The notes under the pieces were generated by a model, which saw only the letters and a program-made list of their open reading frames with translations, had not been told where the DNA came from and did no database searches. This document shows, piece after piece, positions 34,787 through 42,177 of a DNA stretch of 64,000 bases. Positions within the stretch are counted from its first letter, which is position 1, and each line of letters opens with the position of its first letter. This DNA comes from a virus: positions 3,718 to 67,717 of the IMG/VR virus record IMGVR_UViG_3300030012_002710. One strand, given 5' to 3'. Both the position numbers and the translations under genes were made by a program.

Positions 34787-36238
34787 TTAAACTCCTTTGA
34801 ATAATACAAAGTTGTTTGCAGCTTGAGTTACTAAACATCTTTCTGATAGGAAGTTGACTTCCATAGCATCAAGATTAGAAGTGTAAGCACCTCCTGCTGA
34901 ACCAGTTAACCAAGACTTCATTCGTCTGTCTTCTGTTTGAGAAGCTCTATATCTGACGTGTAAGAATGGTCTTCTAATATTTGTACCTAAAATTTGATCG
35001 TATACAGTTGATGTACCTGCTGGTATTAAAACTCCTTCAATAGACTGAGTACCATCAATAGCACCTCTTGTAGAAGCGTCATTTAAGTATTTCCAGTCAG
35101 TTTTGTAGAAGTCATATGAACCTCTTCTAAAACCACTAAAACCTAAGTTTAAAGCCATTTCTTCAGAGTTTTCAAATAAACCGTAAGCAGTACCACCACC
35201 TTGACCGATAGATATGTTTGACAACATATTATCAAATTCTAGTGCAGTTGATCTTTGTAAGAACAACATATTTTCTTCAATAGCACCTTGAGTGTCTAAG
35301 TTTTTAAGTATTGCATCAAAGTCATCTAGACCAGAAGCTCCAGAAAAACCTACTTCAACATTACCTCTTGATGAGATAGCAGCAAAAAGACCTTCAGTAC
35401 CTTTAAAACCTGAAGCAGCAGCGTTATTTCCAGCGGCCGCAGCAGCGATCTCACCTTCAACACATACCATTTCTAGGTAATCTTCAAATCTTAATCTTGT
35501 TTCAGATTCAGCTTTTAAGTACCATAAATAACCTGTAGTACCATCTTCAGTAGTTACTTCAACCCAACCAATTTGAGCCATATCAGAACCATTTATTGTA
35601 TAAACATTTCTAATTATAATTGGTGAATTGTTGTACTGTTGAAAAGAAGGTGTAATAGTTACTTGTGGTTGAACAGTATTATTTAAGTTGTTAAGACCAG
35701 CGCCTGCATTAGATGTAGAAGCACCTTTAACAAATTCTGAACCATAAACAAATATTTTTACTGACGTACCTAAGCCACTAAGATCTGTAGTTAAATAAGG
35801 AGCAACAGTCACTGCACCTGTAGTAGTGTTAGATGCTGTTACAACACATTTAGCTTCATTACCAGCATCGTCTAAAACTACAATAGTTTGTCCGGGAGAT
35901 ATTACATTTCTTGTAACACCTGGAGCTGTAGCAGCTGGTACTGTAATTATAGATGGGTTAGCCTGGTCGTTAACACAATTATCATATGCTATATGTAATC
36001 TGTTTTGCTCTGACCAAACAACTTGATCTGAAGTCAGAGGCATTTCAGCACCTACCATACGTAAAAAACCAGAAAGAGTTCTGTTTCCATATCTTTCTAC
36101 TTCTTGTTCGTATATTTCAGGTAGATATTGCTGAGCAAAATCATTATTACCATCTGTAAAAGATAGGTAATTGCTGGCTAATAGCTGCTGATTAGGAGCA
36201 GGAACTATTGAGCCAAACTGTGGAGTTAAAATTCCCAT
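34787..36238 (-). CDS. major capsid protein
   Basis: 483 aa after the scaffold; QQYLPEIYE.EVERYGNR, WSEQ.RLH, LGF.GFRRGSYDF motifs recalled from Bacteroidota phage capsids. Confidence 0.85.
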   Translation of the reverse strand: MGILTPQFGSIVPAPNQQLLASNYLSFTDGNNDFAQQYLPEIYEQEVERYGNRTLSGFLRMVGAEMPLTSDQVVWSEQNRLHIAYDNCVNDQANPSIITVPAATAPGVTRNVISPGQTIVVLDDAGNEAKCVVTASNTTTGAVTVAPYLTTDLSGLGTSVKIFVYGSEFVKGASTSNAGAGLNNLNNTVQPQVTITPSFQQYNNSPIIIRNVYTINGSDMAQIGWVEVTTEDGTTGYLWYLKAESETRLRFEDYLEMVCVEGEIAAAAAGNNAAASGFKGTEGLFAAISSRGNVEVGFSGASGLDDFDAILKNLDTQGAIEENMLFLQRSTALEFDNMLSNISIGQGGGTAYGLFENSEEMALNLGFSGFRRGSYDFYKTDWKYLNDASTRGAIDGTQSIEGVLIPAGTSTVYDQILGTNIRRPFLHVRYRASQTEDRRMKSWLTGSAGGAYTSNLDAMEVNFLSERCLVTQAANNFVLFKGV

Positions 36239-36254
36239 AATTTATTTTCAATTT

Positions 36255-37517
36255 TTAATTAAACGTTCTTTTTTTTATTTTCAATTTTGAAGAATCAAGA
36301 CCACTAACTGCTTTTACTTTTAAACCACCTATAAATACTTCTCCAGATGCTGTTTTACGAGGTTCTGTACTAATATTTTTAGATTTTGCTAATTGTTCTT
36401 TTATTGCATCAGTTTTACCTTGCTCATAAAAGTGATTAGCTATAGTATCAACATTTTGTGCTGCATATAAAGCTTTGTGATAACCAGCTGTGTCTTCAAT
36501 TTCTCCACTTTTGCCTAGAAACTTTCCGACAAAATTAGATAAGTCACTTTGGTTATTTGCAACAGATGAAGGATCTTTTATTCCATATCTAAACTTTTTA
36601 TCTCCTAATTTAAAATCAAAACCTTTGAATTCTGGGTTAAGCATTTGTTTAGTATTAGATACAAATCTTTCATGTCTAGCTTTTTGCTGTTCTCTATCTT
36701 CGTTATAGCGATTAAAAAAGTCTATTGCTTTTTGTTGTTCTTGTGTTACGCCAGGCCTCAACTTGATTTCTGCGTAATAATCTTTTTTAAGACCATCTAA
36801 AAAACTTTTAGCTTTTGCTATTTCTTCCTTGTAAGCGAGTTTTTTCTTTTTAATATCTCGCTCTTCATCGACCTCTTCATCATACTTAAAAGTATCTTCA
36901 ATTATAAAATTAACTTCTTCAGCATTTAAATGAGGTTTTGCTTGCTTGTAATATTCATGTAATAATGCTTCATCATTTACTTTACTATAATCAGCATTAA
37001 GTCTGGCATAATCTTCAATTGATCCACCAGTTTCTTCCATAAATTTTACTAATTTTTCTATGTTTTCAGGTAGCTTTTGTGCTTCTGCTTCCTGTAATAC
37101 TTCTTTTTGTTCCGATGTGGTAGTGGTAGTTTCATTGCTTCCTGCCACTCCTGCCTTGTTAGAATTATCTTCTTCATCTGTAATTTCTTGTAAAGGTGAA
37201 TCAGTTTCTATTTTTTCTTCTGACTCTTTATCTTTAACATCGTCGCTGGACTCTTGTATTTGTTCGTCCACCTTAGGGCTATCTCCGGTTTGTTCGCCCA
37301 CATCCACTTTCTCTGTTTCTCCGATTGAAATGGCATCTTTTTCTTCTTTTTTACTTAAATCTACTTTTGTTACTGTAGGTTTTTGTTTTTCTTGTGACAA
37401 AACTTTAGCTTTTTTAACTTTAAAACTACCTTCTGTTTTAACTTCTTCTACAGGTTTTGCCTCTATTTTTGTTTCTTCTTTTACTTCTTCAACTTTTTTC
37501 GTTTCTTTTTTTGACAT
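36255..37517 (-). CDS. capsid scaffolding protein (acidic)
   Basis: E/K-rich disordered N-terminus; located between portal and capsid. Confidence 0.75.
   Translation of the reverse strand: MSKKETKKVEEVKEETKIEAKPVEEVKTEGSFKVKKAKVLSQEKQKPTVTKVDLSKKEEKDAISIGETEKVDVGEQTGDSPKVDEQIQESSDDVKDKESEEKIETDSPLQEITDEEDNSNKAGVAGSNETTTTTSEQKEVLQEAEAQKLPENIEKLVKFMEETGGSIEDYARLNADYSKVNDEALLHEYYKQAKPHLNAEEVNFIIEDTFKYDEEVDEERDIKKKKLAYKEEIAKAKSFLDGLKKDYYAEIKLRPGVTQEQQKAIDFFNRYNEDREQQKARHERFVSNTKQMLNPEFKGFDFKLGDKKFRYGIKDPSSVANNQSDLSNFVGKFLGKSGEIEDTAGYHKALYAAQNVDTIANHFYEQGKTDAIKEQLAKSKNISTEPRKTASGEVFIGGLKVKAVSGLDSSKLKIKKRTFN
37058..37177 (-). CDS. overprinted +1-frame basic peptide (39 aa) inside scaffold
   Basis: Hand-translated MKKIILTRQEWQEAMKLPLPHRNKKKYYRKQKHKSYLKT*. 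Confidence 0.6.
   Translation of the reverse strand: MKKIILTRQEWQEAMKLPLPHRNKKKYYRKQKHKSYLKT
37208..37336 (-). CDS. overprinted +1-frame basic peptide (42 aa) inside scaffold
   Basis: Hand-translated MPFQSEKQRKWMWANKPEIALRWTNKYKSPATMLKIKSQKKK*; N-terminus resembles that of the free-standing gene 13961-14401. Confidence 0.7.
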   Translation of the reverse strand: MPFQSEKQRKWMWANKPEIALRWTNKYKSPATMLKIKSQKKK

Positions 37518-37545
37518 AATAAAATAATATAAAATTAATAATAAA

Positions 37546-39954
37546 TTATCTTGGGGTAAATTGTTCTAACCCAAAACCATCAAGACTATCGTTATCTGAT
37601 TCAAAATTTTTAGGTAATAAATCATTTTGTCTTTGACTAATAAGTTCACTTTGTTGTGTTCCTTGTATTTTTACTCTTTTATCTTTACGATCTTCGATAG
37701 CTGCTTCTTTTTGTTGTTGTGCTTTAGCTTGTACTTCAGCTAATTGAATATCATAATTAAACTCTTCAGCCATTAATTGTTTTTTAATTAACGCTTCTTG
37801 TTCCATTTTTTGTATTTCAAATTGAGATTTAGCTTGTTCTATTTGTATTTCAGTTTCAGCTAAAGCTTGTTGTTTTTGTACTTCAGCAAGAGCTGCTTTT
37901 TCAGCAGACTCTGCATTAGCTTGAGCTTGAACTTGAATGTTTTCTAATTGTTGTGCTCTATCTTTTTCCTGCTTTTTCTTTTGTCTTAATTTTAAACTTT
38001 GATTAGCAAGTTTACTATTTTTAATTTGTCTTAAATCTATAGCATCTTCTAAACCTATATTTCCAGCTTGCAAAGCTATTTGTATGTTTTGTTCTAATGC
38101 AGCTTTATCTTCTTCTTCTGGTTCGAGTTCTAAATAAATACCAAAATCATGCATACTTAATTTTTGTATTTCTGATAAGGTATTTGTATTAAAAGTATTT
38201 ATACTAGATAATAAACTTTGTCTTGTTAAAGGAAAGTTTAACATATCCGCTACTCTTAAGCTTATATTTTCACAAGTTCTTACAGTTAAATACATTAAAG
38301 ACTGTAGTATATGTCTTGTAGCAGTATTAGAGTTTGCTGCTGCTAATTTTTGTAATCCAACTAAAGCATCTTTTGCTGGTGTTGTTCCATCTCTTGCTTC
38401 ATTTAAACCGGTTACATCACGTATCATTTGTAAATAATATTGATATGTTTGTATCATAGCTGATATTTTACCCATACCATTTGAAGTTTGTAACTCTTGA
38501 ACAGGTACTTTACCTCTATTTATTTCACCATCTTGAGTTAGTGATCTACCAACAATACTACCAGTTTGAAAATACATATTTAATGCCTCGGCTGGATTAT
38601 AATTTGTACCGTTACCTAAATCAACTTCTGCTAAACCATCTACATCTAAATATACACCATCAGGTACCATTCTTGATAACACTTGTTGTAATTTTAAATG
38701 CGTAAGTTGAATCATATCTGCAAAACCTATTGTTTTACTTACAACAGACTCTATTCTACCTTGATACATTCTAGGAGCAGATATAATATAATTCATATTT
38801 ACTTTTGTTGTATCGCCAAAAGGTCTAGTCATATTTTCACTTAATCTCCAATCTAATAAGTTTTTACCTAAACCTAAAACTTTTGCACCTGTATATAAAA
38901 CTTCTATTGATCTACCAACTCTTTCAAAATTATCATTAGGTGGAGGATCAAAAGTATCTGGTTTTTCTAATGTTTTTTCTAAACCTTGATCTGTTTGTTT
39001 TATTTTAAACACTTGATCATGATATGTTTTATATTCAAAATATAAAACTTGAACTTGATCTTTAGTGCTTTGTCCCCACCACGTATTATCAGTGTATGAG
39101 TTTCTACCCGGATATTTTTGTATTTCTTCTAATTCTTTATCACTTAAATAAGGAAACTGTCTTTTAACTTCAGACAAAGACATGTTTTTTACTTCACCTA
39201 CATAATATATATCTTCAAAGTTTGGATCATCAGTATAAGAATATACAATGTTTGCAGGATTTACATAATCAACTGTTACACCTTCTGATAAATTAAAATT
39301 AGTTTTTACACAACCTATTCCTAAAATAGTTAAATCTTGTGCTAATCTTTTTTTAGTTTCATCATATTTATTAAAATCAAGTATATTATTAATAACTTCT
39401 TCTTCAGCTATTTCAACACTTTGTTTATATTTTAATTGTAAATATAATTCTAATTCTTCCGGATCATCTGGTAATGCTTCTGGGTTAGGTGAGTTATAAA
39501 AACTTCTACCAGTTAATTGAGCTAATTGTTGTATAGCCTCTTTATTTTGTATATCTCTTAAAGCATTAAAAGCAAAATTAGTTCTTTCTTGTATAGCAAA
39601 AGGATCTTGAGCATAAGATTTTATTTCATATCCTTTATCTGTCATACCATTAACTACTATATCTACAAATTTAGATAATATAGGAACAGGTTTCCAGTCT
39701 AAATTTAAATAAGATAAATCACCATTAATAGCTAATTCATCTTTGTATTTTTGAACAGGTTGTTCTCCTCTAGCATATAATCTTAATCTGTTAAAATTTT
39801 GAAAATTACTAAGAAATCTATTCTGACCACTACTATTTTTAAACCACTCACCTTCAATAGCTTGTGCTACCTGTAAACCATATTCTCTAGACTTTTTCAC
39901 TTCTTCAGGTACCACCTGATCAGGAAAAGCACTATTATAGTTAATGTTAACCAT
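37546..39954 (-). CDS. portal protein
   Basis: 802 aa directly after terminase; long Q-rich C-terminal barrel helix as in P22-type portals. Confidence 0.85.
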   Translation of the reverse strand: MVNINYNSAFPDQVVPEEVKKSREYGLQVAQAIEGEWFKNSSGQNRFLSNFQNFNRLRLYARGEQPVQKYKDELAINGDLSYLNLDWKPVPILSKFVDIVVNGMTDKGYEIKSYAQDPFAIQERTNFAFNALRDIQNKEAIQQLAQLTGRSFYNSPNPEALPDDPEELELYLQLKYKQSVEIAEEEVINNILDFNKYDETKKRLAQDLTILGIGCVKTNFNLSEGVTVDYVNPANIVYSYTDDPNFEDIYYVGEVKNMSLSEVKRQFPYLSDKELEEIQKYPGRNSYTDNTWWGQSTKDQVQVLYFEYKTYHDQVFKIKQTDQGLEKTLEKPDTFDPPPNDNFERVGRSIEVLYTGAKVLGLGKNLLDWRLSENMTRPFGDTTKVNMNYIISAPRMYQGRIESVVSKTIGFADMIQLTHLKLQQVLSRMVPDGVYLDVDGLAEVDLGNGTNYNPAEALNMYFQTGSIVGRSLTQDGEINRGKVPVQELQTSNGMGKISAMIQTYQYYLQMIRDVTGLNEARDGTTPAKDALVGLQKLAAANSNTATRHILQSLMYLTVRTCENISLRVADMLNFPLTRQSLLSSINTFNTNTLSEIQKLSMHDFGIYLELEPEEEDKAALEQNIQIALQAGNIGLEDAIDLRQIKNSKLANQSLKLRQKKKQEKDRAQQLENIQVQAQANAESAEKAALAEVQKQQALAETEIQIEQAKSQFEIQKMEQEALIKKQLMAEEFNYDIQLAEVQAKAQQQKEAAIEDRKDKRVKIQGTQQSELISQRQNDLLPKNFESDNDSLDGFGLEQFTPR

Positions 39955-42177
39955 CTAATTTAGTATTTTTGAATTTACTCCTTTATTATCATATTTTTTG
40001 AAACCTAAAGGTACAGTTGTTAATTTTCTTTCAGCAACAGGTCTATATCTATTTTTATTACAAGCCATAATAGCAAGACCAGAGCTTATAGAAGCATCAT
40101 GTGATGTTCTATTATTAATGTTAAATTGTGCCCAGTCTTCTAATGTGCGTTGAAAATACATATCACCGTAATTTTCACCATCAAATCCTATAAAATTTTC
40201 TATATAATCTTCTATAGCAGCTGCATGAGCTTGTTTTATATCTTCACTAGAATTAGGTATTCCACCTATCTCTCTTTCTGTTACAGATAATTTATTATAT
40301 ATTTTATCAGGTCTATTCATTGAATAACCTCTATAACCTCTACGTTTTAAATAATATAAAAGTCTAGGTTTGTTATTTTCTGCAAGTATAGGCATACCGT
40401 AAAATACAATTGCCATTAAAACATCTTCAAAAAATATTTCTGCAGTTTGTGGTCTAGCTATATACTCTAAAAAAAATGTATTAGGCGGAACATCCGCCAT
40501 TGTAAACTTAGTTAAACCATGTAAAGATCCTTTAGATCCTCTACCGTCAACAGTTCCTGATATATCATATGGATCACAACCAAAAGCACCACAGTCTTCA
40601 TTAGCTGGATATTTTATACCATTTTTAACTATATATCTATTTTGTAAATTAATAGGTGGTGTCCATGAAATAAAAAATCTACCACTGTTATTAGGAACAA
40701 ATATAACTCTAGTATCTTTAATCCCACTTTCCCATTGAAAATTACCTTGTGTAATTGCTGTAGAGTGTTTTAAATCTTCATTATAATCTATTTGTTCATA
40801 AATTTTTGCAAGATTAAATAAAGATTCTTTAGCTTCATCTCTAAAAGCATGTTTTTCTGTTCTTGGAAATTGTCTATATAATTCGTTTAAACCGTCTTGA
40901 TCATCTTTTAAACCTTCAACTTCGTTTTCCCAGTGTGATATAACCCCGATCTCAATTGTTGTTCCATCGATGCTTTTAACTGGTTTTTCTGGTGTGTCGA
41001 ATACAGGAAAGCCATAAGTATCGATGTATCCTTCGTAGTTCCATTCCATAGGTATGAACAAAGAATATAATCCTGAACCAGTCTGTCCGTTGCGGTTTCT
41101 TTTTGTAACGTCTGAAGCATCATATAGTTTTTTAAAATTAGCACCACCTTTATCTAAAGCATTAGAGGTAGAACCCATCATACATTTACCTACAATCCTA
41201 CTTCCAAGTCTTAACGTTGTCTTCGTGACCCTCCAGTTGTTGAGGATGTTGTCCGGTCTCTCCCATTTACCCGACTCATCATGGGCGAGTAACCTGAGTT
41301 TCTCCCCGTCGTAGGAGTTGTCACCGGTATTCTTCCAGTCAATGGTAGTATCGAGCCCGATGAGTTCCTCGGGGGTGTCGTTCTGCTCGATCTTACGGCG
41401 GGTGAACTTCGATGCCGGTACCCTGTATGCCAACTCAGTCTTTGGCCTGTCCATACCGTCCTGAATTGGTTTGAAAAAAAACGGGTAGTTGACCGATATG
41501 GGTACCACTTTATCTGTGAACATCTTCTTTGCATCTGCACCAGTCTTGGATAAAATGCCATACCTGGAGTCAGCGGAAATTGTAGCTTGATGAACGAGTT
41601 CTGAGGATGCCATGAAGCTAAAGCCAGACCGTCTATTCTTGAGGTAACACATTCCATAGGATCTATGATCCAACTTACACGCTTCCCAGAATATAAAGAA
41701 TAAGCGGTTTGATTCTCTGAACTGCGCAGAGCCAACGTCAATTTTTGTCCACTGCAAGTACATATAATGAGAGCCAGTAATGTAAGTAGGAATACCTTTG
41801 TTATAGAAGCTAAAGCCTTGTTCCCTTCTTTTAAACTCTTCATCAATATAATCATACCATTTATTTTTAAAATCAAGCGATGTTTGATTCCAATCAAAAA
41901 CAGTTTTTAATTTAGTTAATTGTTTTGGATAATCAAAAACCTCCCAATATTGCTCTTGTTTTTTATTAGATCTTTTATACGTTTTTTCTAGTAAAGGTAA
42001 AGCTATTTTTAAACCTTGTATTTCATATATTTCACCAATTTTACCAGTTTTACTTATAATAATAACATCATATTCTTTATTATAACCTGGTTCCCATTTA
42101 TTATATCTATTATTTCTAGCTATAATTTTTGGTTTTATATGATTATCTAAAACTTTATATAATGTTTGTTTATACAT
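39955..42177 (-). CDS. terL: terminase large subunit
   Basis: Walker A-like LKNRRSGFS, Walker B LAHDESGK, GST coupling motif, nuclease GCDPYD, ENNK and HD motifs. Confidence 0.92.
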   Translation of the reverse strand: MYKQTLYKVLDNHIKPKIIARNNRYNKWEPGYNKEYDVIIISKTGKIGEIYEIQGLKIALPLLEKTYKRSNKKQEQYWEVFDYPKQLTKLKTVFDWNQTSLDFKNKWYDYIDEEFKRREQGFSFYNKGIPTYITGSHYMYLQWTKIDVGSAQFRESNRLFFIFWEACKLDHRSYGMCYLKNRRSGFSFMASSELVHQATISADSRYGILSKTGADAKKMFTDKVVPISVNYPFFFKPIQDGMDRPKTELAYRVPASKFTRRKIEQNDTPEELIGLDTTIDWKNTGDNSYDGEKLRLLAHDESGKWERPDNILNNWRVTKTTLRLGSRIVGKCMMGSTSNALDKGGANFKKLYDASDVTKRNRNGQTGSGLYSLFIPMEWNYEGYIDTYGFPVFDTPEKPVKSIDGTTIEIGVISHWENEVEGLKDDQDGLNELYRQFPRTEKHAFRDEAKESLFNLAKIYEQIDYNEDLKHSTAITQGNFQWESGIKDTRVIFVPNNSGRFFISWTPPINLQNRYIVKNGIKYPANEDCGAFGCDPYDISGTVDGRGSKGSLHGLTKFTMADVPPNTFFLEYIARPQTAEIFFEDVLMAIVFYGMPILAENNKPRLLYYLKRRGYRGYSMNRPDKIYNKLSVTEREIGGIPNSSEDIKQAHAAAIEDYIENFIGFDGENYGDMYFQRTLEDWAQFNINNRTSHDASISSGLAIMACNKNRYRPVAERKLTTVPLGFKKYDNKGVNSKILN
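40908..41123 (-). CDS. candidate second +1-frame overprinted protein inside terL (71 aa from ATG 41123)
   Basis: Stop-free +1 frame coinciding with a second GC-elevated patch of terL. Confidence 0.4.
   Translation of the reverse strand: MMLQTLQKETATDRLVQDYILCSYLWNGTTKDTSILMAFLYSTHQKNQLKASMEQQLRSGLYHTGKTKLKV
41211..41843 (-). CDS. overprinted +1-frame putative lipoprotein inside terL
   Basis: 228-codon open frame (41211-41897); signal-like KVFLLTLLALIICTC; R/S/T/P-rich tail; about 55% GC counted over 41281-41400 vs 22-27% in sampled flanking terL. Confidence 0.7.
   Translation of the reverse strand: MKSLKEGNKALASITKVFLLTLLALIICTCSGQKLTLALRSSENQTAYSLYSGKRVSWIIDPMECVTSRIDGLALASWHPQNSFIKLQFPLTPGMAFYPRLVQMQRRCSQIKWYPYRSTTRFFSNQFRTVWTGQRLSWHTGYRHRSSPAVRSSRTTPPRNSSGSILPLTGRIPVTTPTTGRNSGYSPMMSRVNGRDRTTSSTTGGSRRQR

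Follow-up and report, generated by a model that had tools for sequence, protein, structure and literature searches.

Genes nested within other genes are already known in phages, the classical examples being gene E of phiX174, located inside the scaffold gene D, and Rz1 of lambda, located inside Rz. These genes encode membrane or lysis proteins whose distribution is restricted and which are thought to have been born in place. Known as well, as an uncharacterised family, is PF26884, which the protein atlas names Phage_L5_Gp78. The subject of the present study is a small open reading frame (ORF), designated here ORF B, that is hidden in a head gene of an uncultivated marine phage lineage. It lies in a 64,000-nt stretch of DNA (the window), which represents most of the 67,717-bp IMG/VR virus record IMGVR_UViG_3300030012_002710, assessed by CheckV as 100% complete, and has a G+C content of 31.8%. 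Results of our analysis of the sequences indicate, with a probability that we put at roughly 0.9, that B genuinely codes for a protein and is nested, in the +1 frame, in the gene that occupies the scaffold position, where the N-terminal part of the latter is acidic and disordered. The relevant elements, in coordinates of the window, are as follows.

36255-37517, minus strand: scaffold-position ORF (host gene, frame 0), 420 aa, 1263 nt, between the portal and major capsid genes
37058-37177, minus strand: embedded ORF B, 39 aa, with ATG at 37175-37177 and TAG at 37058-37060, in the +1 frame of the scaffold ORF
37136-37156, minus strand: residues 8-14 of B (RQEWQEA), a short N-terminal helix predicted by AlphaFold2
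37076-37120, minus strand: residues 20-34 of B, PHRNKKKYYRKQKHK, the basic tail conserved in a 38-member alignment

The 39-aa ORF described at this place in the earlier note on this DNA was confirmed from ATG to TAG on the minus strand, with the translation MKKIILTRQEWQEAMKLPLPHRNKKKYYRKQKHKSYLKT exactly as quoted there, and the tail H.NKKKY.RK.KHK to which that note had drawn attention is present. B starts at offset 340 of the 1263-nt scaffold ORF, that is, in its +1 frame, and has a strongly basic composition and an ordinary stop codon. A short helix near the N-terminus is followed by a P.PH turn and then by the lysine-rich tail NKKKY.RK.KHK, and the core of the family can be written as LT..EW..A(L/M)K.P.PH(R/K)NKKKY.RK.KHK. 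In the 38-member family alignment K25, R29, K32 and H33 are invariant and N23, K24, K26, Y27, K30 and K34 are kept in at least 90% of the members; W11 is invariant in 13 of the 13 embedded copies aligned. AlphaFold2, run on B with the 38-row alignment, gave helices at residues 8-14 and 24-38 (mean pLDDT 78.6, pTM 0.31), a prediction that fits a short head followed by a basic helical tail.

The openness of the +1 frame was set aside as an argument for B, because an open +1 frame is expected here by chance. The probability of such a frame with an ATG over 39 codons, calculated exactly from the scaffold protein of each locus and the codon usage of the gene itself, was 0.08-0.77 per locus and thus not significant, since codons of Glu, Lys, Gln and Thr seldom give +1 stops. 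The alternative-frame ORFs of at least 25 aa that were listed in 82 scaffold genes are all in the +1 frame. The upper end of this probability range favours a reading in which B is untranslated and its frame is conserved only because a segment rich in Glu, Lys and Gln is constrained in the scaffold frame or at the level of RNA. The same can be said of the broken copy of B in locus L005, which is still B-like in its tail, and of other +1 ORFs that recur merely from scaffold-frame conservation. One of the latter, starting MNSKVLISKL, is found in the scaffold genes of many loci at an offset of about 820-850 nt (e.g., L030 3836-3931) over the conserved EFKGFDFK region; it shows no dip of third-position variation (share of 0.43-0.47 at codons 267-304) and looks like such a by-product.

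The reverse test, based on codon counts with pseudocounts, is more telling: given the B peptide, the probability that the scaffold frame is open over B is 0.0008-0.015 per locus, and this frame is in fact open in all of 82 loci examined and, within the second clade, in all but one of 78 loci that have the motif (77). Codons for Asn, Tyr and His of B end in C exactly where T would give a stop in the scaffold frame. Both frames are therefore maintained by selection, which amounts to true dual coding.

The substitution pattern points in the same direction. In clade 1, where the set with intact B comprises 15 sequences (14 unique), variation, measured as the number of alleles minus 1, was 25, 18 and 39 at B codon positions 1, 2 and 3, respectively; as position 2 of B coincides with position 3 of the scaffold frame, the scaffold third position is the least variable one. 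Per codon column, variation at scaffold positions 1, 2 and 3 was 0.97, 0.62 and 0.45 over B vs. 0.59, 0.42 and 1.31 in the conserved scaffold domain. When windows of 30 codons were moved along the whole scaffold gene and scored by the third-position share of variation, the 12 lowest windows of clade 1 (0.14-0.17; median 0.525) all fell within scaffold codons 108-149, almost wholly inside B, which occupies codons 113-153. In clade 2 (L175-L254, fetched separately; 58 complete genes, 51 unique), the eight lowest windows (0.25-0.26; median 0.50) fell within codons 65-111, B being at codons 71-111. Pairwise differences in clade 1 were silent in B only in 1143 cases vs. 449 silent in the scaffold frame only, with 46 silent in both frames and 876 in neither. 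Arginine codons of B swap between CGG, AGG and CGC while scaffold residues change. Stops in the +1 frame are present just upstream of the B ATG in 10 of 15 sequences and just past the B stop in all 15.

Such a minimum of third-position variation exactly over B, seen in two clades, could not arise from selection on the scaffold frame, and neither the arginine codon swaps nor the full-length homology of B to independently encoded proteins (E = 1e-17 to 1e-9) agrees with a mere by-product of constraint, which we consider very improbable. The features by which overlapping genes are recognised were found here together: frames open beyond chance (via the scaffold frame), a dip of variation at third positions of the host gene, and a selected product with homologues.

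The homologues of B are numerous, as the earlier note had claimed for small basic phage proteins with this tail, and were found by profile searches of the kind that it had proposed. A profile of 13 embedded copies matched 84 proteins of 27-70 aa in a collection of 5.8 billion proteins, down to E = 5e-17 (90 candidates were scored), and a profile of the same type, used with no length limit against 1.84 billion proteins, matched 51 cluster representatives at E ≤ 1e-3. None of the latter is longer than 111 aa, and thus B-like sequences fused to large proteins were not observed. At least 337 viral loci encode a member of the B family. None of the 84 proteins has a source name other than "hypothetical", and NCBIfam gave 0 matches for 19 proteins. 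A tblastn search of GenBank phages with B and one stand-alone member gave no match; the low-complexity filter masks the tail, and so this result is not evidence of absence. Among the 185,579 prokaryotic genomes searched, one per species, only nine B-family loci were found, all on metagenome-assembled genome (MAG) contigs of 2-63 kb and five of them nested in scaffold-like ORFs. So few prokaryotic loci, all on short MAG contigs, argue that the family is phage-borne.

Three sets of loci, which overlap in part, were fetched by scaffold similarity, by the B peptide and by protein P0114. The first comprises 80 viral contigs with a scaffold homologue of 50-75% identity, of which 14 have an intact 39-aa B with the ATG and the stop in the same places, two have a decayed copy and 64 have none. 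In the peptide-fetched set (L084-L171, 88 loci), B is nested in another frame of a same-strand ORF of 331-441 aa in 72 loci and free-standing in 13; the remaining three, missed by the motif, are intact variants within scaffold-bearing loci, which gives 72-75 embedded copies. In the set fetched with P0114, the copy is intact in 77 of 80 loci, has 40 aa and lies in the +1 frame of a scaffold-frame ORF that comprises at least 150 codons (about 400-420 aa in the loci inspected); these copies represent 52 distinct peptides. The earlier note had named the lack of homologues and of a conserved +1 frame in scaffold homologues as the outcome that would speak against B; both homologues and conservation were found. 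On a FastTree tree of 133 unique scaffold domains, for which sampling was biased towards B, the B-bearing genes are placed in several deep clades, and at least eight changes between presence and absence of B are needed vs. a mean of 44 after shuffling.

The 13 free-standing copies have no overlapping ORF. Genes of DNA ligase, single-stranded DNA-binding protein, helicase, HNH endonuclease, carbamoyltransferase and deoxyribonucleotidase are found in their neighbourhood; a scan of 25 neighbours showed none of the copies next to a gene for portal, scaffold or capsid. B agrees with free-standing homologues in the position of its ATG and in its first residues. Calls of free-standing genes (P0001-P0017, P0039, P0063-P0074) often extend into strings that recur, e.g., ...SHNYSSYIYHV at the C-terminal end and ...SLSYIYHMMKK at the N-terminal end; the recurrence of these strings suggests a conserved non-coding DNA element, e.g., a promoter or terminator, that would flank the free-standing genes.

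In database proteins P0114, P0121 and P0131 an acidic, scaffold-like N-terminus is fused in frame to the B tail, which could be taken to mean that this tail is reached by a programmed +1 frameshift from the scaffold frame. P0088 likewise resembles a scaffold N-terminus fused to the B tail. However, loci 96% identical to P0114 (L175-L177) encode a 418-aa scaffold ORF and a separate 40-aa +1 ORF with an ATG of its own. A frameshift fusion in P0114, P0121 and P0131 was therefore rejected, as the DNA of near-identical loci has the normal nested arrangement, and the chimeric proteins are best read as frameshifted gene calls. With the match of B to stand-alone N-termini and the +1 stops ahead of its ATG counted against it as well, programmed frameshifting is extremely improbable.

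B is not the only candidate nested gene in this part of the scaffold gene.

37208-37336, minus strand: sister embedded ORF A, 42 aa, starting MPFQSEKQRKWMWANKPE (MPFQSEKQRKWMWANKPEIALRW...), in the same +1 frame as B

The distance from the stop of A to the ATG of B is 30 nt in the source phage, in agreement with the earlier note, which had placed B in the frame of a preceding hidden ORF, and 24-36 nt across related loci. Of 80 related scaffold genes, 70 contain an ORF of this kind, in the +1 frame and starting with MPF, in several subtypes (MPFKSEKQRRWMWANKPE, MPFKHKRQMIAMLLSKN and MPFKSKQQMKYLFATNP), and a marginal match of A to phrog_1375 was obtained (E = 0.0054). A is probably a second real nested gene. 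No ORF A was found in the P0114-fetched set, the second clade (L175-L254), which has B without A.

The translation of B would probably begin by internal initiation at its own conserved ATG, and re-initiation 24-36 nt downstream of the A stop is possible where A is present; because the second clade lacks A, B must be able to start alone there. No Shine-Dalgarno-like sequence is visible upstream of the B ATG. The lack of such a sequence is usual for initiation of the Bacteroidota type, so it argues neither way. The tandem arrangement of A and B, in one frame, 24-36 nt apart and in the 5' third of the scaffold gene, invites the explanation that they act mainly in cis, their translation tuning scaffold synthesis by ribosome traffic or coupling and the peptide itself being of minor importance. 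The ratio of scaffold to capsid protein is a known control point in head assembly, which would suit this explanation. However, purifying selection acts on the amino acid sequence of B, stand-alone homologues retain the same sequence with no scaffold gene beneath, and a whole clade has B without A, and we regard such a cis role as improbable.

The head module in which B is nested lies on the minus strand, in the order terminase, portal, 420-aa ORF and capsid.

39955-42177, minus strand: terminase large subunit (phrog_6681)
37546-39954, minus strand: portal gene (phrog_6547, E = 2.1e-141)
34787-36238, minus strand: major capsid or virion structural protein (phrog_13704, E = 1.4e-87)

The 420-aa ORF (36255-37517) had no family match in the family searches and is named "scaffold-position" because of its place between portal and capsid. 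Its residues 1 to about 140 are acidic and of low complexity, while residues from about 140 to 420 form a conserved domain; over B, the scaffold frame encodes an acidic, low-complexity, poorly conserved linker. Its homologue in Flavobacterium Elemovirus phages has 32% identity over residues 140-404 and is annotated only as "structural protein". The Elemovirus homologue (L001 2776-3795) and that of "Podoviridae sp. ctfjg026" (L002 2779-3852), annotated as "structural protein" or "hypothetical protein", both have the acidic N-terminal extension and neither A nor B. A search of the phage collection found no close cultured relative of the source phage. The window also contains a single tRNA gene, tRNA-Met (CAT), at positions 474-548 of the plus strand, and no tmRNA was found within it. 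A scan of positions 36000-38000 gave fewer promoter-like sites than in shuffled sequences and zero terminators.

A link of B to a named family was obtained through P0084, a weak match of the profile search and the only one of the 84 proteins with a precomputed PF26884 label. This label is carried by 42 of 44 relatives of P0084, most of which end in PHKNKKKY.RK.KHK, the tail of B. The Pfam set that we used did not contain the PF26884 model (L5 gp78 itself gave 0 families), and the link rests on profile-profile comparison: in hhalign, the B-family alignment matched that of 17 PF26884-labelled proteins with mycobacteriophage L5 gp78 and Hammer gp87 at 97.6% (E = 4.8e-12, 40 columns). By this comparison B is a divergent member of a gp78-like superfamily. 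Like B, the PF26884 proteins are phage-borne, have 40-55 aa and comprise a helix followed by (T/Q)PH(R/K)N(K/R)K and a basic tail, whereas their N-terminal half has PEQLRARLELRRSNAA in place of the LT..EW..A(L/M)K of B. The gp78 protein of L5 (read from NC_001335) has the ...AA.PHRN(R/K)K... centre of B but a different tail ending, KRPGKGNRNNWKK, and its gene is a free-standing early gene of the right arm, while B is nested in a late structural gene. L5 gp77 and gp78 are toxic to Mycobacterium smegmatis and Escherichia coli according to the account in PMC5035744, which cites Rybniker et al. 2008. The toxicity so reported, in two distant bacteria, suggests to us a conserved target for gp78.

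Pfam DUF7230 (PF23876), a 42-position model of a small basic protein, is touched by eight of the 13 embedded and 15 of the 18 free-standing members, which match its positions from about 12 to 38. All these matches score 12-20 bits (the best 16-20), below the gathering cut-off of 27 bits, so that the B family falls outside DUF7230 by the threshold of the model. B itself and E. coli ArfA (E = 0.11) both touch the same model below this cut-off, and a search of the entire phage genome with the model gave nothing at E ≤ 10. No mention of DUF7230 was found in the literature. The nearest neighbours of B in the protein atlas are clusters labelled in part as PF26884 (15% of members), ArfA (23%) and DUF7230 (12%), with scores of 0.90-0.92, at which chance matches are not rare.

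The earlier note had compared the tail of B to the basic motif of the ribosome-rescue factor ArfA. The motif is there: E. coli ArfA (read from the genome) contains KNKKGKGSYMRKGKHGN and B has RNKKKYYRKQKHK, and when a 3-residue gap is allowed the two have NKK and Y.RK.KH in common. ArfA (PF03889) is, like B, a small protein, with the tail KNKK...Y.RK.KH.N vs. RNKKKY.RK.KHK in B, from which it differs by a 3-residue GKG insert, and the KH dipeptide of its tail motif is invariant in the B family. In a search of 177,635 distinct PDB sequences with the family profile, ArfA was the only match at E ≤ 10, aligned as NKK(gkg)sY.RK.KH. At E = 3.2 this match is not significant, and hhalign and PF03889 searches, given below, were negative, so that B falls outside the ArfA family and the resemblance is one of a short motif. 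The PF26884-like set matched ArfA somewhat better in hhalign (24%, E = 8e-4). By eye, the ending of L5 gp78 (..KRPGKGNRNNWKK) resembles E. coli ArfA just after KH (..KGKHGNRGNWEASGKK) (L174 2552-2689 minus, L172 13432-13650 minus), and the other tail type of PF26884 resembles the ArfA stretch just before KH.

The conserved N-terminal region of ArfA recruits RF2. The C-terminus of ArfA occupies the mRNA entry channel of the ribosome, and the KH motif common to ArfA and BrfA, described as their only outstanding similarity, binds a pocket of this channel, as stated in PMC8012679. In the light of that statement the ArfA-like motif, by analogy, is still meaningful, because KH is the channel-pocket element of ArfA and BrfA and is invariant in the B family. 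Binding of B to ribosomes or nucleic acid, as the earlier note had proposed, is an inference. In the mechanism that we propose, the tail of B would enter the mRNA entry channel of the host 30S subunit when this channel is vacant, like the KH tails of ArfA and BrfA. B would in this way modulate host translation, either because mRNA could no longer be loaded or through an action on ribosomes that have stalled. Its nesting in a late structural gene would couple the synthesis of B to the assembly of heads. Docking of the tail in this channel with an effect on host translation is a tentative proposal, to which we give somewhat less than even odds. Blocking would be somewhat likelier than rescue, considering the reported toxicity of gp78 and the lack of an ArfA-like N-terminus in B.

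The main rival explanation accepts B as real and sees its product as a generic nucleic-acid-binding or charge-neutralising peptide rather than a ribosome ligand, e.g., a DNA-condensing internal peptide of the head, produced together with the scaffold and packaged along with the genome, or a DNA or RNA chaperone. It draws on the extremely basic character of B, on its nesting in a module for head morphogenesis, with the portal gene on one side and the capsid gene on the other, on the predicted simple, amphipathic-looking helix of the tail and on the statistical insignificance of the ArfA similarity. However, the stand-alone homologues are found in DNA-metabolism or accessory modules and not in head modules, and the relative in L5, gp78, belongs to the early genes of the right arm. 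Moreover, across 38 diverse members the tail keeps invariant K, R, K and H and near-invariant N and Y at fixed positions, and residues that are position-specific rather than merely basic suggest a specific pocket. On balance we hold a generic binder to be rather unlikely, though it is the strongest competitor of the channel-docking proposal.

Several observations weigh against the reading of B as a maintained gene with an ArfA-like, channel-docking tail. The B family matched ArfA alone at only 3.0% in hhalign, and a set of 13 ArfA sequences at 3.7%. PF03889 had no match in B or in the 13 embedded copies (E ≤ 1 or 10), nor in the whole phage genome (E ≤ 10). The motif in common is short (about seven fixed residues) and lysine-rich, and could be a matter of convergence or chance. 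The N-terminal half of ArfA is nearly invariant, has no counterpart in B and could not be aligned to it in the hhalign comparisons. The place of B in a late structural module is not expected of a host-takeover factor, its stand-alone relatives and L5 gp78 being in non-structural or early regions. In addition, B is decayed in L005 and L152 (2899-3009), L029 (1517-1624) and L088, with the scaffold frame intact: the copy of L005 has no ATG and one internal stop, and that of L029 has three stops. On the tree of scaffold domains L029 groups most closely, with 100* support, with L105, and L105 contains the L021 contig, on which B is intact. Of the 133 unique scaffold genes examined, about half lack B. 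These genes and the decayed copies indicate that B is dispensable in some lineages.

The description of B as "overprinted" in the earlier note is borne out as far as nested dual coding is concerned. Birth of B de novo within the scaffold gene, which the word may imply, is doubtful in view of the stand-alone homologues in non-structural modules of other phages. Of the two frames, that of B is more widely distributed and more strongly constrained, and the scaffold segment that overlaps it is disordered and variable; in overlaps already known, such a pattern is the mark of the younger frame. However, the acidic N-terminal extension is also present in Elemovirus scaffolds without A and B, and birth of B in place followed by escape would be favoured by the fact that a Glu-rich frame automatically reads as Lys-rich in +1. 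An alignment of 39 residues is too short to decide the direction of origin.

A broader reading would join B, the stand-alone KKKY.RK.KHK peptides, L5 gp78-like proteins and DUF7230 in one widespread, unrecognised class of phage ArfA-like proteins that plug the mRNA entry channel and take over or rescue host translation. In this marine phage lineage, B would long have been kept in the scaffold gene and so be made with the head, and might be packaged and delivered with the DNA to act at the start of the next infection. As a corollary, the disordered acidic linker of the scaffold would have grown over pre-existing small genes in a "reverse" overprinting. We consider this broader reading rather doubtful.

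In the titles and abstracts listed by literature searches, neither the nested arrangement and its breadth nor the link of marine KKKY.RK.KHK peptides to gp78 and the ArfA tail was found described. The word "phage" does not occur in the main text of Burroughs and Aravind 2019, the supplement of which might list related families. Gene callers miss B, which in this window lies inside an annotatable 420-aa ORF. B ties an abundant group of uncultivated marine phages to the L5 gp78 family, for which growth inhibition by no known mechanism is reported in two distant bacteria. If the ArfA-like tail did dock in the mRNA channel, it would represent a new type of viral translation modulator and offer a testable mechanism for gp78 toxicity. 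Whatever B does, this locus offers clean natural data on frame sharing between an acidic disordered linker and a lysine-rich peptide.

Among structural genes of tailed dsDNA phages, the locus counts as one of the clearer examples of dual coding kept up over a long time. In relation to ArfA, a chromosomal gene of Proteobacteria, B differs in being phage-borne. As in the classical nested genes, the smaller gene is contained entirely in the larger, on the same strand and in its +1 frame; the larger gene of the phiX174 pair is likewise a scaffolding gene. Unlike phiX174 E and Rz1, B would be a soluble, basic product, and it has free-standing homologues in unrelated contexts.

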